A stretch of 64,000 nucleotides of DNA from Amoebophrya sp. A120 (GCA_905178155.1 CAJINV010000001.1:2842089-2906088), one strand, 5' to 3'. Numbered from the stretch's first letter, positions 3,810 through 48,767 are shown. Made by a program: numbers and translations. Notes: generated by a model not told the origin, from the letters alone.

Positions 3810-6800
3810 TTATTTCATGGTGTAGACCGTATTACGAAAGGGAAGGCGTAAAGCAAAAAAGAAACTCAAACAGTACTTTTTCTTCACGACATCTCCTAAC
3901 ACATTCGTGACATCCGCATCCGTGACGGGTTGTCCTCGATGCGCGGACTGCAACAGCAGTTTGATTTTCCGCCGCAAGGGCTCCAGTGTCACATCCTGCA
4001 TAGCCGCGTCAACTTTGGACCGGAGCTTGCGCTTGCGCTCGATAGCGGCTTTGATCAGCTCGTCCTCGGCTGTCGTCGTCTTCACGGCTCTGTCTAACCT
4101 TGCATCACCGGAAAACGCGCTCTCCCGCCGTTCCGTGATGGAGAGAGCAGACTCCTTTGAAGGACCCCGGGTAAAAACGTCCTCTGCGACCGGCAATGGC
4201 CTCGGCAAATCGTCCTCCTCGTGATAGACGCTTTTCTCTCTCGCAAACTCCTTGCTCCGCCTGGTGTGCCGGTCTTTCGCGCGTTTCTGCCGTTCCTCCT
4301 GCTCGCGTAATGCCTCGAGTTTCCGCTGCGCGTGGTAGGCCATCATGATTCTGTCCGACGCCATATCGCGGTGCTTTTGCAGGGCGATTCTGCTTTCTAT
4401 GAGTTGCTTCTCTGCCACGAGCTCGATTTGTTCCTCCACCGCGGCTTCGAACAAGTCTTTCGCGGTAAAAACTGCTTCGGCTTCTTTATGCAGCGCGATC
4501 CGCGCTTCCTCCTCATCTTGTCGCTTCTGCGCGATTATCAAATGCAAAAGTGTCTGGGTCTGGAAGATTGTGACACTTGTCATGCACGCTTTGCGTGAGC
4601 TATGATGTCTGTGATGCATACCCTAGCAATACAGATTTTTTCAGGGCTTCTTGATGCGTATTCCGCATGACAGATGCCTTCTCAGCGTAGCAAAAATTGC
4701 ATTCCCCTTGGTACTCATGCAATACAGATTTTTTTGGAATCCAAATGCAGCATCACAAGTTGCATTCTTCCAGACCCAGACATTTTTACATTTGATAGCG
4801 ATCGCCAGCGCTTCCTGCCGGCTCATCTTCCCCCGGGCGTTTTATCGTATTCAAAAATGTCCCCACACCATAGTTGTAATGCAAGTCTGCATGCTGAAAA
4901 GGTTTCTAATGCGGAGCCCCATGAGAAGCATTTTCTAGTCGTGTTGTGGAATTTGTCATGCTCCAAGCAGCATGGTATACTAGATCTGTGATGCTACTGA
5001 ACTACATCAAACAGCACTACACTACGAATCCAAATTTGTCATGCGAAACAGCCAAAACTTGTGGATTTGTCTAGCCGATTCCCCATCTTGACTATGGTGT
5101 GGGGACGTTTTTACTCAGGATACGTTTTTCTGAATCGCGATCGCCGCGGCCCGGCGATCGGCCTCCTTTTTCGCGAGCCGCGCTTGCCTTTCCACCTCGA
5201 TTTCTGCTTCTTTCCTTTCCCGCTGGATTCGCGCTTCGTTCTCCTCGATGACTATTTTTTCCGTGGATTTTCGGAACGCGTTGGCGATCGCGAGGGACAG
5301 GAGTTTCACGTTCTCTTTCGATTCGTTCAGAATCTTGTCCCGCGTCTCCTGTTCCTTCCTGCGCTTTTCCCGTGCCTCCTCCTCCGCGATCCTCTCCGCC
5401 TCCTCCCGAGCTTCGCGCTCGATGCGTTCTCGCTCGATCCTCTCCTCCTCCGCCTGCGCGGCCTCGAGTTTGGGGAGCCACTCGACTGCGCCCTGCACGA
5501 TGGAGATCAACGCGTTTCTCAGTTTCAGCTTCCGGATGCACCGGACAATGGTGATACCCGCCTCTCGTTCCGCGTTTTGTTGCTCCAACGCTTCTTCCTT
5601 CGCCTTCAACCTTCTGACCGTCAACATCCAATCCGTCGCACCGAGGAAGAACTGCCGGAGAGTCTCCCGCAGTTTCCTGCCGCGCCACCATTTCTGGACG
5701 AACAAAACCGCTTTTGTTTCCGCTGCAAACTTGATCGCAAAGGCCTCTTCTTGTCTCTGTTTTTCCAGCGCGCGCAGGACGAGTTCCCGCATGTTTAGCC
5801 GTAGCCTCGTCCGACGGTACCACTTCTGCAATTTCGTCGCTTTCTCCCGTTCCAGCTTCCTTTTCGCCCGTTCTCGTGCAATCTGCTCCGCCTTCTCCTC
5901 TTTCGCCTTTTGGTTGCCGACCCGGAATTTCATCGGAATAGCACCGGACGCTGATTTCTTCACCGCAAACCGGACCTGCCTCGCCTTCCACTGCCTCTGC
6001 AATTTTCGTGCCATGTCGTCCTGTTTCTGCCGCCACGCACGCTGGGCGTCGACGGCCTTCTGCGTCATGACGGTGTGCGCGAATTTCTTCTTGCCGAAAA
6101 CCGAACTCCGGATGGTTTTCTTCAGTTTCCTGGCCCGCCAAGATTTCTGGATACTCTTTGCCGCTTTGTTTTCCAACTTGTCCCGCGCTACCCGCTCGTC
6201 GTGCGCAATGTTCGCGGCAACCAGCCAGGACATGAAGACTGCGCCGGAGACGATTTTTCGCGTCTGGCTGTTCCTGTGTGCCTTCTGCAATTTCACCGCC
6301 GAGGTATGCTCGAGCCGGATCCTCTCTTTTCTCTCTTCCTCCATCTGCAAAATTTGCAGCTCCTTCAAATACGTGCCGCCTTTGGTGAACACTTCCTTCA
6401 ACTTCGTCCGCATCTGGATCTTTCGCCACGATTTCTGCAGTTTGTTCGCGCCCTCTTCTCGCGCTGCGTCCATCGCAGCTTTCAATTCCGCTGCCTTCTT
6501 TTCAGCTTCCGCCTTCGCTTCCTTCCGTCGTTCCGCCCGAACTCGTTTCGCCAAATTCGCACCCTTCTTGCTCAATCTCCGGAGCGCCCTGCGGATCTTG
6601 TTTGCCTTCCAGCTTTTCTGTAATTTCACTGCCGCATCCGCTTCAAACTGGTGTCGGACGAGTTCCTTCGCGTTGATCTCTTTGTTCACTAACTGCTGCA
6701 AAATCCTTATTGTCCGTCTCGCGCGGAACCAATTTTGGATTTTTTTCGCCGTTTCCTTCCAGTGCTGCTTTGCGACGAGTTTCTTGATGTCAATCTCGCC

Positions 6801-9800
6801 GTGGATCGCCATGCTCACGTATCCGCGCAGTTTCTGTGCACGGAACTTGTTCTGCAACTTCCCCGCGTACTCGTGCCGCAATTCCTCCGCGCGCTTCTCA
6901 TTCGCGATGTCGTCCAGCCGCTGTTGCTCCAGTAGTTTTGATAGGTCGACCGCCCCAGAAACGACGCTGCGGAGCAAAGTCCTGGTTCGCCGTCTCCGAA
7001 TCGCGCGTTGCACTTTCACCGCGGCAATGGTCATCTTTTTCCTCTCCTCCTCCTCGGCCTCTTGTTTCAGCTGCTTCAGCCAGTCTCCGGCGGATTCGAA
7101 TACTTGTCGCAGTCTTTCCCGGGAACGCATCTTCCTTACTGCGAGCTGTAATTTGTTGACCGCTGCAACCTTTTCTTCTTTCTCTTTGGCCATCAGGATC
7201 GCTGCCCGCGCATCCGCCTCGGCTTTTGCTTCTTTCCTTCTCTCCGCCCGCACTCTTTTAACCAGCGCGCGACCGTCGATTACCGCCGCGACCAGGGCTT
7301 TTCGTATTTTCCCAACCTTCCAGCGGTGCTCCAACAGCCGTACCGCGTCGACGCGCCGTTGGTGACGGACTAACTCTTTGATGTTGACCTCCTTCCTATC
7401 CTGAGTAAAAACGTACCCACACCAGAGTCAGGATGGGGATTTTGCAACACAAGCCTAGGAGTTTTGTGAGTCACGCATGACAAGTTGCACTCTGCAGTGT
7501 AGTGCAGGTTAGCAAGTGCAGCCGCGTCACAGATTCATCTGCTCATCCTGTTCACAGCATCACAAATTCCAAAACACGATTGGAAATGGCTCTCATGGGG
7601 ATGCGCATTACAAGTCTTCCTGTCTTTGCAAATCTGCATTACAACTCTGGTGTGGGGACGTTTTTACTCAGGATACTTTCGGATCGCGATGCGGATAATG
7701 TACCGAGTTCGGGACGCACGAAAGCTAAACTGGATTTTCCGGGCCATCTTGTCCTGCAGTTTCGCGCGTTCCCGCTGCGCCTCGGTTTCGTACTGGTGCT
7801 CGACGAGCTGCTGCAGATCGACAACGCCCCAAATCGCCTGACGAAGGAGTTTCCGCATCTTCTGACTGCGAAACTGCCTTTGCAGCATCGTCGCGTACTT
7901 CAGTTGTTTCTCTGCTAACTCCCGTTTTTCATCTTCGATCCTTTGCTTCTCCAATATCTTCGACAAATCGACCGCACCGGACACGATTTTCCGCATCATT
8001 TCGCGAAATTTGTTGTGCCGGTAGCGCCGTTGTACCTTGATGCAGGCCTGTTTCAAAATGTAGTTGTTCACCACGTCTTTTAACGGGATTTTCTTTTTCG
8101 TCCACCAGGGCCGGCACGCCGCTTTGATGTGTCGGACAAAGACCCTGCAGCGCCACGACCGCTGGACTTTCTGCACCGCTTCTAGCCTTCTTTGCTCGTA
8201 CACTTTTTCCCGCAAGTCGAACTCGCCGTACATTGCCTGCAGTAACTTCTTCCGCAGCTTCGCCGTGTTCCACATTGCCTGCACTTTCCGGACTTTTGCC
8301 TCTTCGAGTCTCGCCCGCTCTTCGGCCATTTGAATCCGGACTTTCACGAGAATCCCCTTCAGCGCCTCGCGCCACTTCGCCGCGCGGTAGGACCGGACTA
8401 GCCTTCTCGCCATTCGCTGCCGCTTCATGATGTCGAGGAAGACGTAGACTTCCCGTCGGAATCTCGCCGCGCGCACCGCTCTGATGAATTTTCTGGCCGC
8501 ATATCCTATGTAAAAACGTCCCCACCCCAGAGTTCTTGTCATGCAAATCTGCACGGTAAAAATGCTTCTCATGCGGAGCCCCATGACAGGCATTTTTTAG
8601 TTCAGTTTGGCAATTTGTCATGCTCCAATCGGCATGATGTGCTACATCTGTGATGCTGCTTAACTAGCTAAACAGGATTGCACTACGGGGCCAGATTTGT
8701 CATGCAGAACTCCCAAAACTTTGGGATTTGTGTTGCAGACTTCTCATCTTCACTATGGTGTGGGGATGTTTTTACACAGGATACCGCGCGCTTTTTCCTT
8801 AATTCCAACATCATTTTTTCGATCGCGCGTCGGAACTTGATCGCCTTGTAGGAGAACCCGATCTTGTTGCACGCCCGTCTGCACTTCGCTTCGTGCGCTT
8901 TCCTGATCCGCTCCGCCTTTTGCCTCCGCGCCTCCAAGTGCATCGCGTCAATCAGCCAGCGCCACTTCACGATCCGCGTCCAAGAATGCCACATCTTCTG
9001 GATCCGGCAGGCCGCGACCCGTCGTTGTTCTAGTCTGGCCAGCCGCTCCTCCTCGGCGATCCTGCGCTTTATCAACCGGTTGAAATCCACCGCGCCATCG
9101 ACGACCTTCTTGAAAAGCCACCGCATGTGCCGGGTTTTCCACCACTTTTGGATCAAGGTGGAGGCTTGCTTTTCCAGCGCGTCCCTCTCCTCTTTGTCTT
9201 CTTTCGCCCGCTGCTTGTGAAGTTCCTCCTCAATGTCGAGCGCGCCCCAAAGGGCTTGCATCAACTTCGCGCGCATCTTCCTGCCGCGGAAGCGTCGCTG
9301 CACCTTGATCGCCATTGCCGTCTCGTGGTGGAAAATGTCAACTTCTCTTTGCTCTTTCACCAATTTCCGTAATTTAATTTCCCCCGCTACTACTTTTCTC
9401 ATCAATCGATGCATGTTCCTCACCCGAAGTTTTCTTTGAATCACCCTGGCCGCTCGTTCCCTTCGGTCGGCGATGATCTGTTGCTGCAATGCCGTCGGCC
9501 AGTCTTTCATGCCGGAAACGTAATTCCCTAATCTCGATCGAAAGACCCAAATTCGCAATAAGCGCTTCAGCTTCGCCGTGGCGCGCTGCCTTTTCGTTCC
9601 GTACAGCTGTTGCTTCAGCCACTCTTCTTCACCCGGATTTTCGAACTCCAACGCGGACTGGTCCGGCCACGCGATTTTCCGCCCGTCCGGGAGACGCAAA
9701 CAGTCGAACTGCGGCTTCCACGTTTCCCGTGCTCGGACGCTGCTGTAGATCTCCAAGCTGGCGACGAGGTCCTCCATTTGCGCGCCGTTCACGTCTTTTA

Positions 9801-10203
9801 ACAAATCAACGTTCTCGACGTGCGCAAAAGTGTCGAGCTCTAGCATGAGGGACGCGATTTCGCGCTCATCCTCCAGGGAGGAGAGCGCGACGATGGCCTC
9901 CACCATCTCCCGGGTGAAACTGGTCGTGAAGGAGAGGATCTGGGTGATCGAGTGCTCGCTGATCTTCTTCTCGTGCTTCACGTAGTCTGCCTTCATCCTG
10001 CGTTTCCTCGCCCTGTTCCGCGCGGAGAGTGATCGATTGTCATCCTCATTCGCAGCGCCACCACCTGCGGAATCCGACTTTCCGGTTATGGCGTGCGAGT
10101 CGATGCCGTGGTGAGTGTTTTTCTTGCGGATGACACCCATGCCGAGAGTCGGGTCAGTTGCAGGCCAGCCAAACCTGAAATGAATGTTTCTGCGATCGTA
10201 CAT
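3810..10203 (-). CDS. Large IQ-motif repeat / coiled-coil protein (calmodulin/centrin-binding, probably cytoskeletal), split by 4 TIR introners
   Basis: ORFs 8683-10203, 7664-8593, 5115-7334, a 45-nt exon (4798-4842) and 3810-4619 join in frame once the introners are removed (KRAARKF, IRKEVNIK, IQKNARGKMSR, ALAIAQKR). Many IQ-like motifs: IQKWWKTRHMR, VQRRFRGRKMR, IQNWFRARR, IQKSWRARK. Confidence 0.8.
4536..4797. mobile_element. Introner, TIR family A (262 bp)
   Basis: TATCAAATGCAAAAGTGTCTGGGTCTGGAAG ... CTTCCAGACCCAGACATTTTTACATTTGATA; flanking direct repeat GCGAT; removal restores EALAIAQKRQ. Confidence 0.9.
4843..5122. mobile_element. Introner, TIR family B (280 bp)
   Basis: TATCGTATTCAAAAATGTCCCCACACCATAGT ... 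ACTATGGTGTGGGGACGTTTTTACTCAGGATA; direct repeat CGTTT; removal creates the IQ motif IQKNARGKMSR. Confidence 0.9.
7397..7675. mobile_element. Introner, family B (279 bp), internal orientation opposite to 4843
   Basis: TATCCTGAGTAAAAACGTACCCACACCAGAGT ... ACTCTGGTGTGGGGACGTTTTTACTCAGGATA; repeat CTTCC/CTTTC; join IRKEVNIKEL. Confidence 0.9.
8502..8783. mobile_element. Introner, family B (282 bp)
   Basis: TATCCTATGTAAAAACGTCCCCAC ... GTGGGGATGTTTTTACACAGGATA; repeat CCGCA/CCGCG; join KKRAARKFIR. Confidence 0.88.
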
Positions 10204-20700: not shown

Positions 20701-23700
20701 GTCGCGCTTCAGGTTCGCGACAATCTCGGTTTTGGTCTGTTCCTTCCAGTTGGTGAAGAAAAGGAGAAGATCGGTGGTTCTGCCGGCTTTATCCTCCGCC
20801 GGCACGAAGAACTTCAGCAACTTGGCCGCGTGCGCCGCTTCGCTCGCCTTCTTCGAATCCGAAGACTGCTGGAGCTGAAGCTTGTGCGCGGCGGTTAATT
20901 TTCCGATGACCGTTTCCCGAGACCAGGTGTGAAACAGGGTAGAGAGTAAATACGCGTCACTGCGTTCCTCCGCGGAAAGCTTCTCATACGTCGAGACGTG
21001 CATCCTCGCGAGGGCGGCCAGTCGGTCCTTTAACAGACTCTGCTGCTTTCGCTGGAGTAGAGCAGTGTTCCATCCCTTGAAGAGTTTCAGCATTTTTTGC
21101 TTCGGATTGTTGTCGGAAAACAAAGTCGAGGTGCCGGTCAGCTTCTGCAACTTTTCGAACGCAGTAGATTGCTTTTCCAAAGCCACTATTCGCTTTTTCT
21201 CCGCGAGAAGGTTGGACCACAGGCGGAAACAGAACTCCAGCATGGCTTTTGCATGGGACGCCGCCATTGCGGACGCGGCCGCGGTCATTGCATTTCCCTT
21301 AGACCTTTTCACCATTTCCGCGGCACGCTCGCAACGGTTCAGCAGCGTTTCGCGCGCCCAGATGCGGATGACGGAGTGCTGCAAAGTGGTGGAATGGTTT
21401 TCAATTTGCGCCTCCGCCTTGACAACTGCTGCCTTCCGCAGAACGGTTTGCTTGGTCACTTGTTGCCGCCACTCGCGCAAGACCACTCCGCACCAACTCC
21501 GTTGCTGCCGGACGACCAGCACCTGGCCGAACATGTGCCGCACGTGGTTGCACAACTGATCCATGGTCGTGGTCGGTTTTTTCTCGACGATTCTCGACGT
21601 TTGGAGCTGTTTCGGAAACGCTGGATGAACAGGTGCTGCGTTTTCAACGGTACGTGTCTGCTGATTGTGTTTGCTTTGTTCAAAGTGCTTTTTCGTGTTC
21701 CACTGCTGTTGCTGCTGGATATTAACCACCGGCGAACCGTCGGCGAGCAGTGTCGGAAACCGATCCATGGATGCTGCGAGGCTCTTGCGTGTCTGTTCGT
21801 TTAACGAATTCATCGGCGTTGTGTAGACAAGACTTTGCGACGAAGCAAGACTCGGATCTTCCACCAGACCATTTTCTCCAGCCGCAGCCTTGATTTCCGA
21901 CAGACGGGAGGGACTCGCCAGACTTTGACTGCTATTCGAAGCTGTAGTGGCGGCTCCCCAGTTGCTCGCTGCGGTGGTCGTGGCAAAGGAGGTTTCCTGC
22001 AGTTGTTCTGGGTCTGCGCCTCCACCAACCGCGAGCGCCCCTTTCGCGATCGCAAAAGCGGCCTTCTGGAAGTGCTTTTCCAATTCCTTATCGGCCTTCC
22101 GCTGGTACAGCTGGTTTTCCATATCAAGTGCAAAAATGTTTGGGTCTGGATGATTGCAACTTGTCATGCTAAATCTGCATGAGGCAAAAAACTGTGTTGC
22201 ATGATTGCCAAAAGTTGCGCGCTTTTGATCTAGTCGAGAGGCAGTTTCTCGTGCAGGATAGGCATTAGAAAGGTCTCACAGAGTCTGTCATGCTATGTCC
22301 TACATGCCAGACCGAGACCTCATGGGTCATGGAAAACCTGCATGACAAATCTGGCAACCTTCGAGACCCAGACATTTTTGCAATCCATATTCCACACTGC
22401 AGTGCCAATTGGTGAACACGCGGGACAGCACCCGCCTGCTGGAGCGCAAAGCGCAGAGGTTTGCGACACGGGACCGGCCCGCCAAATCCCTCCGCATCCG
22501 CTTCTCCTCGTTGACGTCCAATTTCCAGGCGAGGAAGCACAAACGCTGGAGAACTATCCTGAGTAAAAACGTCCCCACCCCATAGTCAAGTTGGGAAATC
22601 TGCAACGCAAATCTTCAAGGTTTGGGAGTTGTGCATGACAAGTCTCCATCTGCAGCGCAGTGCTGGTTAGCAAGGGAAGCCGCATGAGAAAGCCACTTTC
22701 TCATCCTGTTTACAGCATTACAGATTCCAAAACACGACTGTAAATGCCTCTCACGGAGATGCGCATTACAAATGTTCCTGTAATCGCAAATCTGCATCAC
22801 AACTATGGGGTGCGTACGTTTTTACTCAGGATAAGAACGTCTAATTGCTCATGTCTGCGGTTGCGGAGTTGCTTGCTGCTGCACTTCTCCAGCATCGGGT
22901 CCAGGATAGTGGAACGGTAGGTGGCGGAAGTCTGCAACTTCTGCTCTAAAGACGTAACTCGCCAGGCGAGAAACAGGTGGATCGCAGTGGCGGTCGCTGC
23001 ATTTTTCGCTGAAGATATTTGTCTTCCCTCGTCGTTTTGAAGGTCTTGCAGTTGCTTTTTGCAGACGAAGTCGACAGCGGTGAGTCGAGCGGTTTTTGCG
23101 GAAAGTTTGACTCTATCAAATGCAAAAATGTCTGGGTCTGGGAGAATCCGAGATTTGTCATGCAGTTTTTTCAAGCTCCCCCACGTCTGGAATTATGCAG
23201 GGCCTAGCATGTGCATGACAGGTTCTGCAGCTCCTTGATGATGCGTATTCTGCATGAGAAATGCCCTGTCAGCATGGCCGGAAGTGGGCACTTTTTGCAC
23301 GTCTGCATCACAGATCTTTGTAGGATCCGAAACACGCATCACAAGTTGCAACCTTCCAGACCCAGACATTTTTGCATTTGATAGACTCGCTGCAGATTTT
23401 TCCACTCATCGAAGCAATGTTGTCGCAGAAGTGCAGAGTTCAACCTTTTAACTTTCTCCACTTGCTGGAAGTGCGCTTTGCGGTTGGTATTTACGCTCTG
23501 CACGTGACTCTTCCAATTTGCGAAAATGTGATGAAGTTCGGTTTTGCCGAAGTGGTGCTCGAGGATGGCAACACGGTTCATCTTTTGCTGCACGACGCCC
23601 GCCTGGAAAGCACAATTCTCTATTTTTTGCTGATCCGAGGTTGTTTGCATGCGCCAAAGTTGGAATGTACTTGCGAGGAAGAGTTCATTATTCGATCTTG

Positions 23701-28910: not shown

Positions 28911-29612
28911 ATTGTCTTTTGAGAATGTTTCAACAGCAGCACTATGTAGTCGGTGTCTCCCTGGTACACCGCTTTTTGTTTTCCACTAGCAAAACATCAT
29001 TTTACATTTTTTCCGGTGCATTTCAAGTTTCAAAATAGCATAGCTAAAAAGAAGATACGAAGATTCCGTGTATGAAAGAAGATTCTCTATGGGCTAAAAG
29101 CACTTTTTCTCTTCCTGTGATTTCATCTTTGCTAAACTGCTAAACTGAGACTGAATGTGATAATCTGCTAAAAGATTCATTCGTAAGCTTTGAAGAATTT
29201 TGACAAAGGCTCTGATCTTGACTTTACACACTTAGCAGAAAGCTTCTACTTCGCATTTAAATTTTTAGAGTGATCAAAAGGTTAAAAAGCGACCAAAGTG
29301 TCGCGATCTCCCTAAGCACGGCAGGACTGGTTCAACCTGCAGTCAGCTGCGCCTTTTTTCAACGACAGATGGGTATGGGCAGTAGTATCTTTTTCCAACA
29401 GGCCGTTTTTATTTTTAAAGCAGTTGCACACTAGCACTACCGGTAGCAGTCACTCAGTATTTTTTCAAGCTTCTTTGGGTAGAGGGATTTTTATTGAAAT
29501 AGCGCTAAAGAAAAAAGGTGAGTAATCGCGTTTCCACCTTACCGCATATCTACAAACAAACAAACAAGAATTTTGACAAGTTGTAAGCCTTGACATTTTC
29601 ATCAAAAACTTT
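28911..29612. repeat. Diverged local duplicate of about 27129-27470, interrupted by an insertion
   Basis: Collinear match from ATTGTCTTTTGAGAATG to ...TTTTGACAA, resuming after the insert as GTTGTAAGCCTTGACATTTTCATCAAAAACTTT. Confidence 0.85.
29207..29565 (+). mobile_element. SINE-like or 5'-truncated non-LTR retroelement insertion (359 bp)
   Basis: 14-bp target duplication AAGAATTTTGACAA (29193-29206 and 29566-29579). (CAAA)n 3' tail preceded by an AAGGTG...CACCTT stem. The empty site is visible in the paralogous copy near 27428-27440. Confidence 0.75.
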
Positions 29613-29654
29613 TCATCGTTTCATCGCGACAACACCAACACCAGCACTCCCGCG

Positions 29655-32600
29655 CTAGAACCGGCCATACCCGCTGTTGTTGCTGATTTTCGGGAGCGAG
29701 CCGGTGCTCAAGGGCGTGTAGATGTTTTCGATCGATTTCATCTGTCCCTTACCCCCCTTCTTGGTTTTGTGGCGGGCCGTGCTAGCGGCGGAGCTGCCAG
29801 AAAAGAATTTACTGGACCCGGTCATGCCGAGGAGACCCGAGCTAGAGCCCATACCGGGCTTGGCCGCCTGCACTTCGGCGAGTCTCTCGCGGACCTCCTT
29901 CGATTCGCGCTGCAGCGTGACGACCTTGGCTTCTTCCGTGGACAGGGCGCGCCGGTAGGCCATCACCTGCAGGATCGTGGTTTTGGTTGTCTTTGTAGTT
30001 CTTTTCATAGTACACGTTGAAGGACTAGGACACGCTTTCATCCTTATGCGTCAGAGAATCTGATTCTGAACAATGCAAAAATGCGCGGCCAGACACATCA
30101 TTAAGTACTCGTAGATTGTTTATTTGCAATACAAAATCAAAATCAAAATGCTCTTTCTCACCTCGACACGATGGTCCTCTTTCGCTTGTTCCACCATACT
30201 CTCCAATTTCACCCGCTCGTCCTGTCTTCTCTTCTTTTCAAGTTCCATATCACACAGAAAAAAGCTGGCAGGTCATTTTTGTAATGCAAAAATAAGTAGA
30301 CAAAAGTATTTGCATTGCATATCCTAAGTAAGTAGCATGCTATGAGGCCGCCCATAACATATTTTTCTGTGTATTTATTTTTGCATTACAAATTATATGC
30401 CCTGCCAGCTTTTTTCTGTGGGATATTCCAAATCTCGCGCCAAGTCGTTCGATCGCTTGGTATTGGCGTCGACGATGGTGTTGGCCTTTTGCTCCGTCAC
30501 GCGGGCGGCGACCATGCGGTCATGGAGCTGGAGTTTGAGCGAATTTACCTACAGCTTACATACACGGTATTCAAGTTTTTTCCTGCGCATTGCAATGATG
30601 AATGAGCATGGTATCTAGTTGCACACGAGAAGTGAAAATGCAGCAATACCTCGTCCTTTTCCCTCTCTGCTTCCTTCACTTGGTCCTTCATGGCCTCGAG
30701 GGTCTTATCGGCAGCGAGCAACAACCCGGTGAGTTCGGCGACTTTCTCGTGTGCTCTGATCACTTCGTTGTCACGGAGCCGGAGGATGTCCAGGAGTTGT
30801 TTCTGATATGTTACGATTTACTGCATCTTCCACGCACGAGGAAAATGACAGGCTGCGTCAGGAGAAGCAACAAGGCAAAAATTCAATTAGGAGACATCAA
30901 AAAAAAAGCCCAAGTATGAAATTATACCTCGTTCTTGCTCTCTACAGTGACCTCGTCCTTCCAGACGTCCCATATGAATTGCAAATGTGTCTGGGTCTGG
31001 GAGGATGGAACTTGTGATGCGTCCTGTGGGTCACATAAAAATCTGTGTTGCGTGATCGCCAAAAGTTGTGCTTTTTTGACCAATATGAGCGGGAGTCTCT
31101 CATGCAGGGTAGGCATGATAGAGACTTCGCAGAATCTGTCATGCTAGGTCCTGCATTCCAGACCTCATGGGGCGTGGAAAATATGCATGACAAGTCTGCA
31201 TTCTTGCAGACCCAGACATTTTTGCATTTGATATCCCTTACTATTTCGCGAATTTCATTCCGCAGTTTTTCCAAGTCAAATATCGTATGGAAAAATCCCC
31301 CTTCCCAATACTAAAAAGACCTACTTCTGAAAATTTGTATTGCTGATTTTCGGACGCAAATCGTCTCTGTATTGCAAGAAGGCAAAGCCAGAGACTCCGC
31401 CGGGTTCTGCGGGCAATTTGTAATGCTGTATGGCGTGCAGAGGATAAGCCTCCCTTGCTAGGCGCCAACACCAAAAGGGCCCAGCTCAGGCCTTGTATCT
31501 ACTGTGCGCAGTCCTCTACTGCAAGACAGAGCTGATTTGTGTACACAAATCCTGCATCACAGATTTCCAATTTGATACGGGGAGGGGGATTTTTCATTTT
31601 GATATCAAATGCTGGCGCCGGAGCGCCCGCGGCGCCCTCACCTTCACCGGCCTTCCCGCCAGTAGCTGTCCCATCCCCCGCTTCGCCGTCTTCCCCGGCT
31701 GCCTTGGGATCGCCGGGCGCTGCTTTTGCACTGGAAGACGTTCGGGCCCCGGTTTTTCCCTTGGCGTCCACTTTTGCCTTGGCCTTACTCTTGGCCTTCT
31801 TCTTCGCCTGGCCCTGTTGTATTCGAGAACATATGACAGTCGTGAAGAGTTTGTTCTGTTGACATCGATTCGTGTGGTGCAACAACTAAACCCACAACCA
31901 ACTTCGCGGAGGATCAGCTTGTTTGGGTGTGTTGACAAAAAGTTCTTTAACATATCACATCTTCTAGTTCTACCTTCGCAGCACTGGCTCTTTTTGCCGG
32001 TGGTCCTTTTTTGCCATCCGCTCCTACCTCGACTTCCTCTTGGTCTTGTTCAATTTCCTCCTGCTCCTCGGCCTCTTCGTCCTGGTAGTTTTCGTCCATA
32101 CTATTTGGGTCGATGCCCACGGATATCAAATGCAAAAGTGTCTGGCTCTGGAAGGATGCGAAATTGTGATGCGTGTTGCGGATCATACAAAAATCTGTGT
32201 TGCATGACTTGCAAAAGGTCCCCATTTCTGGCCATGCTGAGGGGGCATTTCTTATGCAGAATAGGCATCACCGAGGCGCTGCAGAACCTGTGACGCTAGG
32301 CCCTGCATTCCAGACTTGGCGCTGGCGGAGCTTGGAAAAACTGCATGACAAATCTCGGAGTCTTCCAGACCCAGACATATTTGCATTTGATAACGGACGC
32401 CGCGCTCCCGCTGCCACTAGACCCGGGTCGCTTCAACATGGCTATCTCATCGGCAATCACACCGCGGACAAAGTTTCCTGTTGGGAGGAAGATGATTTAC
32501 AATTGCGAGACCGTGCATAGGAGGAGCACAAGCAGGAGTCGTACTAGGGGTTCTTAGGCTTAGCATCAGACAAATATAGTATTTTGCGTCAAACATACAT

Positions 32601-33350
32601 GAATTCAATACGGAGAAAGTGGCCGTTGCCGTCCTCGCCATCTGATGACGATGATTCTCTTCTCTGGTTAACTGGCTCCGCAGCGGCTGGCTCCTCCTCT
32701 TCTTCGTGTTCTGGTGGTGGGGCCTCGCCACTCGCTGCTACTGGCGCGGCCTGGTTATTTTGCAAGACACAACATGATTATTTCGAGAACGAGGAGGGAA
32801 TCAATGGAATGGCTGTCCTTCCATACCTCCAAGCGCTTCGTCGACGCAGAAAAAGACATGCCGACTCACCCACTCGAGTGCGAGTCAGAGAGTAAGAAGT
32901 AGAATTCACGACATGTACCTCATCCGGTTCTGCCGTAGCACCAGCTTCTACTGTGACCGCCGGTTCCTCTGCTGCTGCTGTCGCACTGTCAGCTTCTTCT
33001 ATTATCTGCGGAATCGGCTCTGTAGTTGGCTCCTCCGCGGCCACTGCAGTTGTACTATCCCCTGCAGCATCTTCTGCTGGTGCTGGTGGTGAGTCAGGAT
33101 CTCTTGCTGGCGCTTCCGCGGCCTCTGGATCCGCCGGAGCGGGCTCTGTTGTTTCCGCGGCCGGTTCAACAGTAGCCGGCGCTTCCGTTTCTGCTGCCGG
33201 CTCTTCTTCTGCAGGAGCCGCTTCAGGAGCGACTGCGACGTCAGCAGCGGGCTCGACTGCGGCATCAACATCAGCAGTGGAGGCTTCTGGTACTGGAGTA
33301 GTCTCTTCCGCAGGGGCTTCTGCGGCCGGTGTTTCCTCTTCTTCAGCCAT
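29655..33350 (-). CDS. Coiled-coil protein with acidic Ala/Glu/Pro-rich N-terminus; about 6 GT-AG introns and 4 introners
   Basis: ATG at 33350 (MAEEEETP). GT-AG introns include 32478-32611, 31814-31973, 30549-30649 and 29967-30161. Introner joins AASVGID, PAFDLEKL, VRDVWKD and DLELEKK. Confidence 0.75.
30248..30425. mobile_element. Introner, TIR family C (178 bp)
   Basis: TATCACACAGAAAAAAGCTGGCAGG ... CCTGCCAGCTTTTTTCTGTGGGATA, with the inverted repeat extending inward (TTTGTAATGCAAAAATAA); repeat TTCCA. Confidence 0.9.
30973..31233. mobile_element. Introner, family A (261 bp)
   Basis: TATGAATTGCAAATGTGTCTGGGTCTG ... CAGACCCAGACATTTTTGCATTTGATA; repeat TCCCA/TCCCT. Confidence 0.87.
31281..31604. 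mobile_element. Introner, TIR family D (324 bp)
   Basis: TATCGTATGGAAAAATCCCCCTTCCC ... GGGGAGGGGGATTTTTCATTTTGATA; repeat TCAAA; homologous to 54001-54335. Confidence 0.88.
32124..32392. mobile_element. Introner, family A (269 bp)
   Basis: TATCAAATGCAAAAGTGTCTGGCTCTGGAAG ... CTTCCAGACCCAGACATATTTGCATTTGATA; repeat ACGGA. Confidence 0.9.
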
Positions 33351-33961
33351 TTTGACAGTAAACACCGGAAGCGAGAAGTAGAGCAATAGAGTTTATTCCG
33401 ACGTCCCGTCGCAGCTATCAAATCATTTCAAAATTGATCATACGAATGAGATCTCCGCTTCCGCTTCTACGTCCACCGAACAAGCACCACCAGCTCTCCT
33501 CTACTCAGTTTATCTCCTCTCGCATCGAAATCTCGCATGAAACCACAACGGTCAAGATCTTACAACTTGTTCACTACAAACATTCATATTATTAAATCGA
33601 CTGCAAAAAGAAAACATATTTCACATGTGGCAGCCATCCTGCGGCTGCGCCAGCCCTTCTGCGGCTGCGGGTTGTAGTTAGTTTGGGTCGTCTTCATGTT
33701 TCTCCATACGGCGTCGGTGTACAAAAGGAACACAAAAACAGGAGGCGGAAACAGGAGGGTTATTATATTGTTTTATTCGGTCGTCCTATCGCTTTTGTAC
33801 AACATTGGAGATTCATCAGAATGTTGTTCTAGTGTTACGTAGAAGGTTTTAAGTACATTGCTTTCAAGTCGACGTGTTGAACTGTACAATCGAAGAACGG
33901 TGCGTAGTACAAAGAATCAAGATTTTCATACAAAGAAGAGGTGTACTAGTGTAGAAACCGA

Positions 33962-36900
33962 TCACACATTCGCCACCGCTCCGTGCGCCTGTCTCCTCAT
34001 TCGTCTGACGACCTCGATGAAGAGGTGCATGGCTTCGATCCATAATGGCGAGTCAATGATTTGAAAGTACAGATCGACGGCGTTGCCTCCTTTCCTGCTG
34101 GTCAAGTACCGCAGACAAACGTAGTTTGGATGCTTCGGATCGGTTACCACCGCGCTTATGGTCAGGATGCTGCACAGTACCTGTTATTCGTATTTCAAAA
34201 AGTTGGTTGAAATTATCATGAGCAGAAAAGGAAAAGCATCTTCCCTTTTCGCATCGTACTATGGAACGACCAAACAAGCAGAGCACCAGAATGCAGCACC
34301 TTTGTAGTTAATACCTTCGCGTCACTAGTATCATTCGAGAGCCTATCTGCTTCCCGGTGGAAGATTCCGAAGTGCCACTTCAGTTTCCCGGCGCTTGTCT
34401 TCTTTTGAAACACGTTTGCAAATTTCGTCCTTGGTATTCCGAACCGCGATACCCACTTGACGCGCGCCTGCAACAACTGGCGCAATATCTTCAAAACCGC
34501 TTCGTACTCCGCGTTTCCCTTCAGATCCTTCATCGTCGCCAAGTGCTTGCTCATATCAACTGCAAATATGTCTGGGTCAGAGAGCTGTGGGGAAGTGAAA
34601 ACCGCAGAAAAAAAAAAAAACCTAAGTACTTTGACAGGATGAACTAGTACAAATAATCCCGCAGATATAGCTTAGTGGAGCAACCTCAAACGGTCTTGGT
34701 GGCAGAAGTTCCCCTGTCTGCGAACTGCTGAACCCGTTCTCCAGCCGGCGCCTGCAGAGCCGGGCGCGTCTTCCGAAGGGTGTGCCGCAGCGGGATGAGG
34801 CAAACCAGGACAGGGTCCTCTCCCGTCCTCGCCCCGCACGCGACGGGAATAATAGCCACCTCGATACTACAGAGACGCTTCGACAGTTCCGGAAGAGCGG
34901 AGGTGTTTCTAGTTCTTGATTGCGCGCTGGTGGAAGACGCAGCAAATGGAAATGATCCGTCCGCAGTTGTAGTTCTTCTTCTTTGGGCAGCTGCAGCAGG
35001 TGCTGGCGACGAAGTAACTGGGGGCTGCGCGGGGCCTGCACGGGGCACCAAGCCACTAGCGCCCCGCAGGAACGGCATTCGGATGTTTTGACTGTCGAAC
35101 TGGGCGGTGGCTCGGCCGAGGATTGCGGCTTCTTCCCGAAACCGCGTTGACACGAACTTGGGGTCGTTCCAGTACAGCGCGCTGCGCCGCGCGGTCCTCG
35201 TGCGGAGCCTAGACCGCTCGTCGCAAAACTTGCGGCATTTCCAAATAAGCGGACTCGGCGGCTCCGTCTGGATGCGGTGTAGCCGCTCGTTCCGGCGACG
35301 GACGTGCTTCTGCGGGCCTGCCTCTGTGCCGGCAGGTCGTTGTTCACAAGTAGATTGCTCCATCCCTCCTGAGGAAGTGGAACCCGAACCGGCAACCGTC
35401 GTGGTGGCCACAGCTTCATCGACACCGGAGAAAGGTTGTAGCCGTTTCCCCTGGCAGATGCTTTTGATCGTTCGGCCCTCCACACTGTCGGAGGTCCGCA
35501 ATCGGTACAGGTCCTTCCAGCCGTCCATGGCATGCACGATCGTTTCGGTCTTGCAGTGCAAAAAGCACGCGTCGGGATGCACGCAGTCGGCGGAACAAGC
35601 ACCGCCGTCCTGTTCCACCTGGTGCTGACACAGATCCTCAAGAAACACGTTCAGGTCCGCCTTAATCCCGCGGAACTCGTCCTTTCCCTCCTCTGGGTCC
35701 ACGGTGAACCGCCGCCAGCGCAGCATCAGCTGCTCCAACATTTCGGCAACGTCTTCTTCCGGCTCCTCCAGACAACTGGCGCTTTGGCCCGCACCAAGTA
35801 GTGCCCTCTGTGGGTCTCCGAGCGACACGGCCGGGTGGTAGGGTTGCAGCTGAAAATGTCCGTCACAAACGACAAGTGTTTCCACACAGGGCTGTTGCGT
35901 ACTACTACTAGACGGTTCTCGACGTACACTGGAGGTGCCTGTAGTTGTACTATCCGGAAACCGCAGACGGGAAACGAAGCAGATGCTGTACCAGTTTGGT
36001 GGATTCTTGGCGTGCTTCTCGTAGAATCGTGCCTCCTTGTATGTCCGCAGCTCGTCGTGATAAATCGGTCGCGTCCCGTGCTTCCCGGAGACCAGGAACG
36101 GCTTCTGCTTCAAAAACTTGTCACTGAAACAGAACAACGGAAAAGCCACTAGCGTTGGCCTCAGGTGGGCGTGTCCTCTCCTTGCTGCGCGGGCCAGGGC
36201 CATTGTCTTCGCGTGGTGCGCGGACCTACGCCGCCCGCCTGCGCGGTCTCGGTCATCATCCGAGTCTTCCTCGTCCCGATCGGTCGTGGTCTCGGGGCTC
36301 GACGGCGGCTCCGAGTCGCTCGCCGTGTCCGCATCTTCGAGCCGTGGAGGTAGCGTGTACATCTTCTTTCCCTGATCCACACAGAACTTGGCGACGCGGT
36401 CCAGCGTGACGCCGGGGGAAACTGACGAGCTCGCGCTATTCAGCCGCAACTGGGACATCCTAGTGCACTTCCAACCACGTTTCGACCTATCCCCGGGGAC
36501 CGGAATGAACTCGTTTTGGGGCTCCCGCAGTTTGCAGTCAATCACTAGTGGGCTGGAGCACAGCTTGTACGTGCGCGGCGGGTATCTTGTTGTCCTTCCG
36601 ACTGAGCGGGGTGAAACAGAACTGCCCCGCCCCGGGCTGGTGTCGTCCCCTGCTCCGGACGAAGTACCACAAGGCGCCAACGTGCACACGCATGTCAATT
36701 CGTGAAACGGGACCTGTGGATCCCACACTCGCGCGTGATCGTCCCGCTCAATCCATTCGCCCATAGGCGACACACGGATGCGGAAGATGTAGGGCTGGGG
36801 GCAAGGATCGTGCTCGGCCGCCGCCACGTCGGAACGACGACCGCCATGTCGTGTGCTCTGTTCCTGGCTCGGGGAGAACGTCGTGCCGCGGGCTAGAGGC

Positions 36901-39900
36901 CTCGCCGACGTTGCAGCGCTCGCCCCCAGTGGGATTTCATCCGGACTGTCAGCAGGGGCACGATCACGAACGGCGCCAGGCTGGACACGACGTCCGAATT
37001 GCGAAGAACGCGCCCGAAATCGTCCCCCGCTTGCTTCCCCGGAACTGCCAACAGTCGCGGCCGCGCAAAAAAAACTGACAAAAACAGTCGCGCCCGCACA
37101 AAAAATTCTCATGTGAGAAAACATTTCTTCTTCATTACAAAACACAACAGATAAGGATATTTTTCCACGTAGAAAAAATTAAAATAATAATAGAAAATAA
37201 GCACGACAGCCCTGTCAAGAATTTTCAAGTCGTCCTGGAAATTTAGGAAGGCATGTGCAAGAAACCAATTGTGTGCTCGCTTCTTCAGGCGAGCGAGTTA
37301 CTGTCTAACGTACTATCTATATTCCTGCTTGTAAGTAGCTGACAGCCAGTGTCTCAACCGGTTGTCACCAAGATCTGGAGAAACACCGCCCGTTTTAGTG
37401 GTGAACCAACAGACCTGGGGAGTTGCCTGAGAGAAAGTGAGCCGAGACCCGCAATCACCCCTGGCTTCAGAACCAGGCACTACTACCGCCTCCGTAGTGC
37501 TTCGATCAGCCTCCGCATAGCCACAGGGTCCAAAACAAGCCGCCTCTGCTTGCCCTTCCCTGCGTCAGAACAGGTGCTATAGAAATGACAGGTCCTAAGC
37601 AAGACTCCTCTTCTTGCCCTTCCTGCCTGCGCCACCTGAGCCGAGGCTCTGGTAGCGGTACGCTGACGCCGCCGGGAGACGCAGGAAAACACGGAGTTAT
37701 ACCCTGCACCGCCCAACTACCTCCCTAAAACCCTTTACCCTACCCTTAAACCAAAGATGTTGAAAGAAAATATTTACTTCGATTTTTTGATGTTTCGCTT
37801 GAAAGCGTCAGCACTTCAAGCACATTTTAAGACATATATTTGCTAGTGTAGTATGTGCCCTAAGACCGAAATATTTCTTTTCAGCTAGTACAAAAGAAAA
37901 TGAAAGCGTAAGCTAAGTTGTATTGAAATTGAAAATCCTTCAGAATGTTTAAAGATAAAGTGGTATCAATAATAAGTAAAGGATCAAGCGAAGTACTGAT
38001 GACGATGATGCTTTCGGGCCCGGCTCGGCACTAGTCCCTCTTCCGCGTCCGAAGCGCAGCAGTGAAATTCTATTTTGCCTGTGAGAAAATTGATTATGTG
38101 CATGCTATCGTCCGGGTCATCCATGATATTTTTAAGTAACTCTTTTTCGTAGTTCTTCATGTTTTTTTTCTTTAACTACAAATCTCGCACGGTGGATTTC
38201 GACGCGTTTGGTGGAGCGGTGATGTCCGAAGCACTAACGCGCTCGAGCTAAAACTGCGAGAAAGTTCGGTAACGACATCAGATCGTGTTGCTATTTGTAA
38301 AGAAAAAATAGCATTTTATCTCTTCTTCGTGCTTAGCTGGTGCAGCTGAAGCTTTTCAAGAGAGAGAGAGAGAGAGATCAAGTTTTTCTCCAACGACAGT
38401 ATACTTTTTGTAGTCAACGACCTCGACATGCTAGTCTGGTATGACTCTGAGATCTGTATCGCGTTGCCGCGAAGAGCTTCTCCTGCCTGTCATGCAAAAA
38501 CAGAGTTTCTCATCATGCGGGTTACGCAACTCCGAACAACGGAAAAACTTTAACTTGTCAAACATGCTTGGCAGCGCATTACAGGGCACTCACTATTCGT
38601 ATTCCCCTCCTTCCATCACAAGTTTCCAGACCCAGACAGGTTTACAGTGCATAGCTCACTTCCGCGGCGACCGGAGCGCTGATCGGGTGCTCGATGAAAT
38701 GCTCAAGCCTGGTGATTATCAACCGTAAAAATGTCTGGGTCTGGAAGAATGCATGTTTGTCATGCTTGTCTGGCATGACTATTAAATCTGTCATGCATGT
38801 TGCCCAAGAGCCGCATTTTTCTGTCATGCGGAGACGCAATTTGTCATGCAGAATAGGCAACACCTACAAGCTCAGAAACTTCTCATGGTGAGCCAGCACT
38901 TGTGGCCTCCTCATGCTACGCCACTCAGCATCACAAGTTTCCAGACCCAGACATTTTTACAGTTGATAGTGATCTCGTCGGAAGATTGCTTGTCCACGTC
39001 TGCCTTGTACTGGATACTTAGCACTACTTTCCCCGACTGAAAGCTGTCCGTAATCGCACTGCCGTCCGCTTTTTTCACGACCGAAAACGCCTCGTGGCGG
39101 ACGCAGCCGAAGGAACGACGGGCAATCACCATCTCCATCACATCCAGTATCCGGTGCGCCATACGGTGCTTCGTGCGGAATAAACCGCCCGTGACGACCC
39201 AAACCTGAGGATTCATCGAGATTGATTTTAACTTTTGATGCTCAACAAATAAAACCATTTCTGTTCTTTCATCAAAAAAACTTTTCAAAAATTTTGCAGC
39301 ACATGCAGCAGTGGGCAAACTAACTGTACTGCGTCTGATATCATTTTCGATGTTTCATAATTTCCAGTACCTCTATCACGATGCTTCTGTATCCCTGCAA
39401 TATCCTGACGTCAAGCGGCTTTTCAATGACCCCGTTTTTGCTGTCCGGCGTCCAGTAGTCCTTGCCCCCAGCGATGATTTTCACGCTATACACCCCCTTG
39501 TCCTCCGGGTGGGGGTTCAGCATCTTCAAACTGTGCACGTTGATCACCAAATCAATCGCCTGAAACTTGTCCCAGCCAATGGAGAAGAGGAAGTTCTTGA
39601 TTGCCGGGAACCTCCGCCAGTTCAGGTGGCACAGACAGCAAAGGAAGCAGAAAAACAGGAAGGACAGGACGAAGAGGTGAGCAATGTTCAACGGACCCAC
39701 GATCGGTCGGGTCACCCCGCAGAGGTCCCAACTTGGTGACGGGTGGTGGTTGGTTCCGAAGTGGACGGGGTGCGTTTCACCGTGAGCGGCGGCGGCTGCA
39801 GCCTCTTCCAGGTGTTCTTCTGTGCCGGGAGGCACCGGCATCACGTGCAAGTGAAGGTGGGAATGGGAAAAAGCGTTTTCGAATTTATTTCGGGTTTGTT

Positions 39901-46045: not shown

Positions 46046-48767
46046 CTAGGACCCATACGGCAGCATCTTCATCATTCTCTGCCCAATCGCGGACTGCCGG
46101 AAGTGCGTCAAGTCCATCTGGGACATGACGTAGCTCAAGTCGTCAAATTTCGAGAACACCTCCGGCACGTCTTTCACCAAAAACACCTTTTTGCTATTGT
46201 CGATATCGCCCCCGACTAATCGGTACAGTTGCAAATCCCCCTCGTTCAACGCCAGCTGTGAACAGTTTTGGTGCGCGCCCACGTCAGCGACGATGTCCAT
46301 GTCGAAGAACTTGTACGTGCGGCCCACCGGAACGGAGCACATCTTGTCGCAGCAGCCCCGGGCTTCCTTCTGCTATCCTGTGTAAAAACGTCCCCACGCC
46401 AGAGCTGTAATGCAAATGCGCAATAACAGGAACGTTTATAATGCGCAGCTCCATGAGAAGCATTTCCAAACGTGTTTTGAAATTTGTAATGCTGTAAACA
46501 GGATGAGAAAGTCGCTTACTCATGCGGCTTCCCGCCTTGCTAACCAGCACTACACTGCAGAGGCAAACCTGTCATGCGCAACTCCCAAAACTTGGAGATT
46601 TGTCTAGCAGATTTCCCATCTTGACTATGGGGTGGGGACGTTTTTGCTCACGATATCTGCGCCTTCTTCGCGATCTGCCGGTCCTGCATCTTGCGGATGC
46701 GGGCCGCGGCGTATTACTGTGAAAAATGCCCCCACCCCAAAAGTTGCAATAATTTGCGATGCGAAGTTTCCAAATGAAAACTTTTTGTCATGCATGAAAG
46801 GAATATGAATCCTTGTGATGCAAAGTCTAGGCGTATATAGCATTGCTTGCATGACAAGCGCCGCTCTTGCTGGGATCTGTTGCAATACAAATCTTCGCTA
46901 TTCACGATTGGAAATCTGTGATGCTGCTAGATGCAAGAGGGCGAGTGTTTCTGTTAGAAAAGTTTGCAATACAAATCCTCCCAAGTTCGGGGGTGGGGGC
47001 GTTTTTTATTGTGATACGGCGTCACCGGCGCAACAGCACATGTCTTCCATCGACGCGCGACAGCAGAAGAAGCAGCTGTAGAAGGGAAAGCAGGCGAGGT
47101 GCGCCGGGTCGTCGCAGAGGTACCAAAAGTCCCACTCCGTGTACAGGACGCGTTCCGAGGTGATCTTGTACTGCGGCTTGGCGCAACAATGCGCGTTGAA
47201 CAGGTAACCACAGCAGGTTATCACACAGAAAAAAACTGGCAGGTCGTATTTGTAATGCAAAAATAAATAGACAAAAAAATTTGTATTGCATATCCTAAAT
47301 AGCATGCTACGAGGCCGCCCATGACAGATTTTTCTGCGTATTTATTTTTGCATTACAAATATGCCCTGCCAGCTTTTTTCTGTGGGATACAGGTGCGCTT
47401 CGTCGTCTCACTGTCGTAGTACACCGCTTCTTTGTGCTTGTCCACAGTCTTCGTCGCAGGGCCATCCATGCCGGCCGGCCAGGTCCAGGTTACCTGGTGA
47501 GGTTTCGATAGAAGGATTGAAATTCGAGGAGAGGCTGAGGCGTTCTTTCGTCCTCAGTTGTAAAATTCAAGTAGTCTTCTTTGTGGTATCTTGATCTTTG
47601 ACTTTGAAATACGAACAAACCCAGAGACTGCAACATGAAAAACCCTGCTCTTACCGCCCCCATCAGCCTGCCCAAGCCCATCGCGGCCAAGCCCTTCAAG
47701 TTCATGCGCGACAAGCGGAACGTCATTTGCTGAAACACGGTGGCCACGTCCGGGACGTCGTTCAGAATGAAGGTGCTGCTCGAGTCGGACAGGTCGCCTC
47801 CCGCGAGCTTGTGCAGCACCATGTCGCCTTCCCCGCGGCAGATCTGGCACAGGTTTTGGTGTGCGCTTATGTCCACGATCAGGTCGGCATTAAACTGGTC
47901 CAGCTGCCTGCCGGAAACGCAGTTGCACTTCCCGTAGCAGCACCGGGTCCACTCCCACCGAGAGTAGACGTACCGGACATCGGTGACTTTGTTCCAGCCC
48001 GGGCAAGACATGCAGTAGTGGATTTTACCTGATTTTTATTCAACATTGATTCCTGTGCAGACTTTCTTTACTCTGGACTTGGCCTAAGGCAATGGAGGAG
48101 TACACAAAGCATTTTCCTTCTGGCGCGCTCGTGCTCTTCCATCAACACTTAAGCTGCAGTTCGGTTTTTTACAAATGCGCAAATCAATGCAAATTCAAAT
48201 TCTACCTTATCGAGAAGAAGATAATAAAGAGTTCTTTTTGTTCTTACCAGCAACCGATCGATGCGATGTGGCGCTGTTGTAGAAGACCGTTTCGTTTTTC
48301 ACGACGGAAAACGCTTGCATGTCGTCTGTGGTTCCCTGCTTTGGGGCCATGAGGTGCTGCCCTTCTTTGAGGATCGACTCAACCGCGTTCGGGTGCTGTG
48401 CGAGTTTCTGAGCGAAAGAGGATAACTCGAGTTTAATATTCCTGTCCTCTGCCACGACCATGTCGTTCTGCACTGGCGCTTGCAGTTTTGGGCCGAAATA
48501 ATCCTCGTCTGCTGAAGAACTGGAGGGGCTCGACCCCGTGAACAAACTCTCGAGTGCGTAGCAGGGCGAGCTGGGATCCACCGGCAAGTCGTTGATCAGA
48601 ACCCCCGGTCTGGACAAGAGTAACCAGTCGAGCAGACTACCACTTTTTGCTTGATTAAAGTCGTCTTCCGGGTCGATATCCTCTACTGGGAGCCGCCGCG
48701 ACCGGTCCGGCGGAGGGTACCGCGGGGCACCGGGCGGGATCCGGAAAGGTCCACCTCCCGGGGCCAT
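46046..48767 (-). CDS. Cys-rich protein with two tandem bacterial-PH (bPH_2)-like domains; 2 GT-AG introns and 3 introners
   Basis: Two homologous halves (VTDVRYVY...IVDISAHQNLCQICRGEGDM / ITSERVLY...IVADVGAHQNCSQLALNEGDL). Joins TKRTCCGY, GDAAARIR and KAQKEARG. Confidence 0.65.
46374..46655. mobile_element. Introner, family B (282 bp)
   Basis: TATCCTGTGTAAAAACGTCCCCAC ... GTGGGGACGTTTTTGCTCACGATA; repeat TCTGC. Confidence 0.9.
46712..47016. mobile_element. Introner, B-related family (305 bp)
   Basis: TATTACTGTGAAAAATGCCCCCACCCC ... GGGGTGGGGGCGTTTTTTATTGTGATA; repeat CGGCG. Confidence 0.85.
47219..47389. mobile_element. Introner, family C (171 bp)
   Basis: TATCACACAGAAAAAAACTGGCAGG ... 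CCTGCCAGCTTTTTTCTGTGGGATA; repeat CAGGT; homologous to 30248-30425. Confidence 0.92.

Follow-up and report, generated by a model that had tools for sequence, protein, structure and literature searches.

Terminal inverted-repeat elements at the locus

The stretch analyzed here (the window) comprises 64,000 nt of the genome of the marine parasite Amoebophrya sp. A120 (GCA_905178155.1, CAJINV010000001.1:2842089–2906088), with positions counted from its first letter. Nineteen elements resembling miniature inverted-repeat transposable elements (MITEs) were found in the window, ranging from 150 to 4100 bp and located between 4.5 and 54 kb. All 19 had TAT...ATA inverted ends and a flanking 5-bp target-site duplication (TSD), and every host gene was encoded on the minus strand. 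These elements are probably non-autonomous transposons with terminal inverted repeats (TIRs), that is, MITE-like "introner elements" that act as introns: exactly the element plus one 5-nt TSD was gone from transcript contigs, in either orientation, with the paired TIR ends, and not GT/AG signals, as the likely guide to this removal.

The scan required TAT...ATA termini, a TIR with at least 15 of the 20 terminal bases complementary, and a direct repeat of 5 bp at the flanks, of which four or more positions had to match. It recovered 17 elements in the window vs. none in each of 20 shuffles. The total of 19 was completed by the family B element at 4843, whose left arm had decayed (24 of 30 arm positions complementary), and by the element at 34554–38653, which lay beyond the length limit of the scan. 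The TIR core of family B matched 10 times, compared with no match in each of 100 shuffles. Based on their arms and interiors, the elements were assigned to families A, B, B2, C, D, and E (Table 1), and the 4100-bp element was counted as a member of family A. Elements are named below by family and first position.

The arm pattern common to all families was TAT, about seven variable bases, and an A-run. The elements started with TATCCTGAG in family B and with TATCAAAT or TATCACAC in the other families. Positions 11–13 were A in 88–95% of 216 arms, a composition in which the TAT at the arm start is not independent because it was imposed by the scan. Watson-Crick pairs were formed at 483 of 570 arm positions. 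Every one of the 19 elements had a TSD of 5 nt, which was perfect in 15 and had four of five bases matching in 4; its composition was near uniform, with no preferred sequence.

Orientation of the copies

Orientation was read from the element interiors after 35 nt had been trimmed off each end. Relative to B4843, the interiors of B8502 and B46374 were forward, with identities of 0.77 and 0.72 vs. 0.55 and 0.57 for the reverse complement, and those of B7397 and B22555 were inverted (0.71 and 0.67 vs. 0.55 forward). Copies of family A likewise occurred both ways (Table 1). The orientations agreed with the repeat table of the window, and they bore out a preliminary description of this DNA, which had given the same coordinates and orientations for the copies of both families.

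The preliminary description had also raised the possibility that the interiors are palindromic rather than truly inverted. The identity of an interior to its own reverse complement was 0.48–0.59, which is the background level (0.54 in the unrelated comparison of B2 with B), so the inversions are genuine. Family C was the exception, with values of 0.63–0.73. Both of its copies approached a single long palindrome, with 66-nt arms at 88% identity and 39 nt between them, for which orientation is almost meaningless.

Removal of the elements in transcript contigs

One run (X1) was DNA-like, and four runs (X3–X6; two samples of one study) were guessed to be RNA. No run was recorded as RNA, and the RNA nature of X3–X6 rests on their GT-AG joints: contigs carrying such joints were therefore derived from spliced RNA. 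Ten of the 19 elements were skipped in these transcript contigs, and each skip was exactly the element length (L) plus 5 nt (Table 1).

An X3 contig of 6426 nt (record 9) aligned to 4001–4530, 5123–7391, 7676–8496, and 8784–10172. The 40 letters that it held between 4530 and 5123 were the exact remainder after removal of A4536 and B4843, with one TSD each, and the two other joints corresponded to B7397 and B8502. Forward (B4843 and B8502) and inverted (B7397) copies of family B were thus absent from one transcript contig. For family A, removal was confirmed both for a copy in reference orientation (A4536) and for inverted copies (A30973, A32124, and A38717). The proposal in the preliminary description that the same element is removable either way was therefore upheld for both families.

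Each of the four runs contributed one contig of the minus-strand transcript 29536..33416, and this contig lacked four TIR elements as well as six GT-AG introns. The skipped ends at six of its joints read CT..AC on the plus strand, as expected of GT-AG introns on the minus strand. Together with the restored minus-strand open reading frames (ORFs; see below), these ordinary introns placed the host genes on the minus strand.

If the elements were excised from the DNA of transcribing nuclei, by programmed elimination or precise transposon excision, the RNA would never hold them, and precise excision would leave exactly the loss of the element and one TSD. However, contigs of the DNA run (X1, records 1–4) passed from unique flank 23–26 nt into the elements at a depth of 42.6–44.6, the same as that of the flanks, and therefore the DNA retains the elements. 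None of the X1 joints listed was an exact skip. Absence from the DNA, which marks the programmed elimination of ciliate internal eliminated sequences, was thus not observed for these elements, and excision at the DNA level has hardly any probability left.

Two further runs of raw RNA reads, from runs with one species label in common with the above, gave few alignments to the window (3 reads in X10 and 74 in X11), all of them partial, within elements, and at 95–99% identity. The X11 reads at 5037 and 7435, in B elements, continued into unrelated sequence, and apparently stem from B-like copies whose transcription took place at another locus or in a related strain.

Restoration of the reading frames

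In silico excision of every element plus 5 nt yielded minus-strand ORFs of 1756, 2002, and 1151 aa, each spanning several elements (Table 1). Removal of L + 4 or L + 6 broke the frames at B7397, B8502, and D51570. In the hydrolase gene, the Abhydrolase_3 profile was matched at positions 2–43 in the exon before D51570 and resumed at positions 53–96 in the exon after it. The protein of the gene at 3813–10203 contained 16 IQ-like motifs at a spacing of ~50 residues, compared with 1.39 in shuffles; its IQ label comes from this motif pattern, and Pfam gave no family, IQ included, for its exons at E ≤ 0.01. For the gene carrying A22122, B22555, and A23114, none of the RNA contigs listed covered the intervals 16–22 kb and 24–26 kb.

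Template switching classically occurs where short direct repeats surround a strong hairpin, and the transcript evidence here comes entirely from contigs derived from cDNA. The skips might thus be produced in library preparation by reverse transcriptase jumping over a stable hairpin between the 5-nt direct repeats, while the mRNAs keep the elements. Against this, frames stayed open for 1151–2002 codons over several elements only when L + 5 was removed, and the hydrolase domain was continuous across D51570, which implies that the removal takes place in vivo. In addition, the skipped form was the contig that assembled across the whole gene, in four runs, and the skip of the 4100-nt element was no less exact than those of the short elements. 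In the A120 genome study (Farhat et al., 2021; BMC Biol 19:1; PMC7789003), read-supported introns of this kind are also reported to number in the tens of thousands. We consider an artefact of this kind very improbable.

Table 1. Terminal inverted-repeat elements and restored open reading frames of the window (L, element length; joints are positions in RNA-like contigs).
Feature	Position	Orientation or strand	TSD	Observations
Family A, 262 bp	4536..4797	reference	GCGAT (4531–4535 and 4798–4802)	TIR 28/30; skipped in RNA contig
Family B, 280 bp	4843..5122	reference; degenerate left arm	CGTTT	skipped in RNA contig
Family B, 279 bp	7397..7675	inverted vs. 4843	CTTCC/CTTTC (one mismatch)	joint 7391 to 7676, 284 nt (L + 5)
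Family B, 282 bp	8502..8783	as 4843	CCGCA/CCGCG	joint 8496 to 8784, 287 nt (L + 5)
Family A	22122..22389	inverted	TTCCA	restoration of 2002-aa ORF alone
Family B	22555..22833	inverted, as 7397	AGAAC	80% direct to 7396–7675; ORF restoration only
Family A	23114..23383	reference	GACTC	ORF restoration only
Family C, 178 bp	30248..30425	almost wholly palindromic	TTCCA	joint 30242 to 30426, 183 nt (L + 5), 4 runs
Family A	30973..31233	inverted	TCCCA/TCCCT	joint 30967 to 31234, 266 nt (L + 5), 4 runs
Family E, 324 bp	31281..31604		TCAAA	joint 31275 to 31605, 329 nt (L + 5), 4 runs
Family A	32124..32392	inverted	ACGGA	joint 32118 to 32393, 274 nt (L + 5), 4 runs
4100-bp element, family-A-type ends	34554..38653		GCTCA	joint 34548 to 38654, 4105 nt (L + 5), 3 of 4 runs
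Family A, 252-bp subfamily	38717..38968	weakly inverted	GTGAT	joint 38711 to 38969, 257 nt (L + 5), 2 of 4 runs
Family B	46374..46655	as 4843	TCTGC	restored 244-aa ORF only
B2 (B-like), 305 bp, interior unrelated to B	46712..47016		CGGCG	
Family C	47219..47389		CAGGT	
Family D, 150 bp	51570..51719		GTTGA	splits alpha/beta-hydrolase domain; 1151-aa ORF restored
Family A	53513..53777	reference	GTGAG	87% direct to 4533–4768; ORF restoration only
Family D	53815..53964		CGTCG/CATCG	ORF restoration only
1756-aa ORF	3813–10203	minus		spans A4536, B4843, B7397, B8502
2002-aa ORF	17794–24631	minus		spans A22122, B22555, A23114
1151-aa ORF	50098–54130	minus		spans D51570, A53513, D53815

Cut register and splice-site signals

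Because of the TSD, each junction can be placed anywhere within a range of up to 5 nt, which gives six possible registers. When all six were checked, GT..AG ends were possible in none of the 10 RNA-verified elements. The two copies of the TSD were mismatched in three verified elements (B7397, B8502, and A30973), and in these the contig kept the base of the transcript-upstream copy. The 5′ cut fell after at least two bases of the upstream copy in B7397 and after at least one in B8502 and A30973. Under a single rule for every element, the 5′ cut would lie 0–3 nt upstream of UAU, and the 3′ cut would lie 5–2 nt downstream of AUA.

Two conventional explanations of the family B ends were rejected. 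The U12-type 5′ splice site has the consensus /RTATCCTT, with a purine first, and the ends of family B resemble a /GTATCC site of this type combined with a TTTTTAC branch-like box. U12-type splicing was rejected because the junction register was L + 5, because a purine preceded the element in only 11 of 19 cases, and because families other than B were without the motif. Minor-spliceosome small nuclear RNAs (snRNAs) are reported as absent in the text of Farhat et al. (2021). Likewise, GTAAAAA...CAG as a hidden canonical pair within family B was rejected because the contigs lack the element in full, together with 5 nt.

The main rival to removal guided by paired ends is a spliceosomal route with polar signals inside the TIR. 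Here the 5′ UAU-7 nt-A-run would serve as the donor side and the 3′ U-run-7 nt-AUA as the pyrimidine-tract or branch side for a divergent spliceosome, and the hairpin would be incidental. The preliminary description had concluded that removal cannot depend on polar signals such as a donor, a branch point, or a pyrimidine tract. This holds for the asymmetric interior: since both orientations are removed, the non-palindromic interior carries no required polar signal. It does not hold for the TIR, because signals placed there would survive inversion. Since the ends are inverted repeats, the 5′ and 3′ termini of the element in the RNA stay unchanged when it is turned round, and orientation independence by itself is thus no argument against the spliceosome.

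All 19 elements and 216 arms shared these end sequences, and the ordinary GT-AG introns in the same transcripts indicate that a spliceosome is active. Nearly all spliceosomal proteins are reported in strains A25 and A120, with U1 snRNA undetected, in the text of Farhat et al. (2021). Introners with GT/GC/GA-AG sites are described as creating introns bidirectionally in Polarella, in a pattern "similar to" that of Aureococcus, in the cited passages of a preprint by Roy et al. (10.1101/2020.10.14.339549). However, GU..AG occurred in no register, the junction nucleotides came from a TSD of unbiased sequence, and removal was exactly L + 5 across 178 to 4100 nt. A spliceosome reading signals within the TIR is thus possible, but we regard it as unlikely. 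The stronger argument for an unusual mechanism is not orientation but the combination of no GT-AG register, junction bases taken from an arbitrary TSD, and a constant L + 5 from 178 to 4100 nt.

Hairpin structure and a model of removal

The only features common to both orientations were the TIR ends. When the transcript strand was folded, all 18 short elements formed a long end-to-end stem, with z-scores of −2.8 to −11.5 against shuffles, and the terminal UAU:AUA was paired in 17 of the 18. The preliminary description had proposed that removal must read a symmetric feature, either the TIR hairpin or double-stranded DNA. The shared TIR ends and their folding agree with the first, for which we infer a hairpin in the RNA; double-stranded DNA is disfavored by the depth of the X1 contigs and by the derivation of the transcript contigs from RNA.

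In the model that we favor, the two TIR arms would pair in the pre-mRNA into a long stem, by which the exon ends would be drawn together. A splicing activity would then place each cut at a constant distance from the stem base, with a total offset of 5 nt between them. The stem base is identical in either orientation, and measuring from it would therefore explain orientation independence. The activity could be a modified spliceosome or another set of enzymes. In a bolder and rather doubtful version, the pathway would be a sequence-blind, spliceosome-independent endonuclease plus ligase acting on nuclear mRNA, with both cuts measured from the TIR stem base and with a 5-nt offset that mirrors the stagger of the inserting transposase. 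If that were true, an insertion would be harmless from the moment of landing, in either orientation and at any length to at least 4.1 kb.

Several observations weigh against guidance by paired TIR ends or narrow its basis. Among the arm mismatches on the transcript strand (570 positions), G·U (14) was not commoner than A·C (20), although selection at the RNA level should make it so; selection for RNA pairing was thus not detected. The lack of a G·U excess counts in favor of signals inside the TIR, and transposition, or the transposase, may be the sole reason why the arms are kept. The cut register was narrowed only to four of six, on the single informative element B7397. The transcript evidence consists of assembled contigs labeled "RNA?", which are blind to splicing efficiency, strand, and rare isoforms, and all RNA-like runs belong to one study. 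ORF restoration is the only support for 9 of the 19 elements, and the restored ORF for B46374, B2, and C47219 is only 244 aa. The inverted call for A38717 is weak, with a small margin of 0.60 vs. 0.53. Finally, neither an autonomous partner nor a transposase was identified; the 4100-bp member gave no Pfam family, no Atlas hit, and no local copies.

Copies in metagenome loci

A 15-nt core of the family A arm was used to scan metagenomes, in place of a genome-wide scoring of orientation, and 141 loci were retrieved. Of these loci, 51 contained another 91 unique elements that ended in the same way and had a 5-bp duplication; none of them overlapped the unique DNA of the window. After excision of all elements, the gene strand was assignable for only 25 of the 91. 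Of the 52 copies of family A among the metagenome elements, orientation was clear in 44 (25 vs. 19 relative to the locus strand), and orientation and gene strand could both be assigned in 12. Nine of these 12 lay relative to the restored ORF as A4536 does, and 3 as A32124 does. When the copies of the window were included (3 vs. 4), the ratio was 12 vs. 7, which was not different from 1:1 (p = 0.36). Both orientations also occurred inside long restored frames at metagenome loci, for example, in the four copies of locus L024.

Many contigs of one metagenome assembly (a subset of L002–L141, e.g., L024 and L040) carried these families, and the same or a closely related organism is therefore present in that assembly.

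Comparison with known introner elements

The Amoebophrya genome study reports that more than 60% of introns are non-canonical in strains A25 and A120 (Farhat et al., 2021). According to its text, a subset of them, termed "introner elements," has inverted repeats of 8–20 nt and direct repeats of 3–5 nt at the boundaries, with a hairpin drawn joining the exons. The inverted-repeat motif of A120 is given there as TAT, seven less-conserved nucleotides, and at least three As, and 29,850 repeated introns are counted in this strain. The elements of the window share with this class the end inverted repeats able to form a hairpin, the short direct repeat at the boundary, the lack of fixed terminal dinucleotides, the many families, and the blocks of co-directional genes. 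The A120 motif fitted all five families A–E, and the elements were removed with non-GT-AG boundaries; no structural difference from the class as described in that text was found. Hence the removal in both orientations is real and was correctly observed, but it belongs to the published class of Amoebophrya introners and is already described.

The main text and one supplementary text file of Farhat et al. (2021) use "orientation" for genes only. No paper on the orientation of Amoebophrya elements was found, nor any paper later than Farhat et al. (2021) on the mechanism of their removal. The modest additions made here may be the occurrence of both orientations within one transcript, the constant L + 5 with the upstream TSD copy kept, and the 4.1-kb member; some of these may already be covered in the supplementary figures and tables of that study (S19–S25 and Table S7).

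The introners of Polarella glacialis and Aureococcus anophagefferens, as presented in the cited passages of Roy et al., are also DNA transposons with TIRs and TSDs. They form an intron on insertion, several classes do so in either orientation, and intron length is tied to the element plus the TSD. They differ in using GT/GC/GA-AG sites supplied by the element end or by a constrained TSD (e.g., GHNN and AGGH). The elements of the window, in contrast, had no GT..AG register in the 10 verified cases and a TSD without preference, which sets them apart from this type. Pairs of opposite orientation are built into the detection method described by Gozashti et al. (2022; PMC9860276, in the part cited).

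A 2024 review (PMC11282704) groups the Amoebophrya elements, in its relevant section, with the nonconventional introns of euglenids, whose removal mechanism is also given as unknown. The two are alike in their non-canonical junctions, TIR-like pairing that joins the ends, TSD-like repeats at the boundaries, and a suspected origin from MITEs. According to the same section, the euglenid introns belong to another lineage and pair through a CAG/CTG motif at +4–6 and −8 to −6, not through TAT-7 nt-AAA. Furthermore, a circular excised RNA is known in euglenids. Compared with class II TIR MITEs in general, the elements have the expected length (150–325 bp), TIRs, a TSD of fixed length, no coding capacity, and many diverged and dispersed copies. 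Their combination of TAT...ATA ends with a 5-bp TSD matched no named superfamily.

The window sets constraints for any mechanism by which the thousands of signal-less introns reported for Amoebophrya might be removed. Such a mechanism must act on both orientations in one transcript, remove exactly the element plus 5 nt, and leave two or more bases at the start of the transcript-upstream TSD copy in place. It must also make no demand on the flanking sequence, handle a 4.1-kb element as it does those of 150 bp, and work beside normal GT-AG splicing. These constraints refine a phenomenon that has already been published. For annotation, such genes will be broken by gene finders that look for GT-AG introns, and in silico removal of the TIR/TSD elements restores their frames.

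The 4.1-kb element and other features of the window

The 4100-bp element contained an ORF of 830 aa on the minus strand (34689–37178), for which no Pfam family and no Atlas hit was found. Its interior was unique among the loci fetched. The element could be related to the short ones, either as an autonomous form or as one that carries a gene.

Other repeats were also present. In a region without TIR elements, a tandem array of four 89-nt units (13831–14174; 62–93% identity to the reference unit) was followed by three dispersed 81-nt repeats (14275–14777). Two pairs of direct segmental repeats, at 90–96% identity, were found at 11467–11775 and 16813–17118 (5.3 kb apart) and at 27118–27438 and 28900–29206 (1.8 kb apart); these pairs may be local duplications of gene parts.

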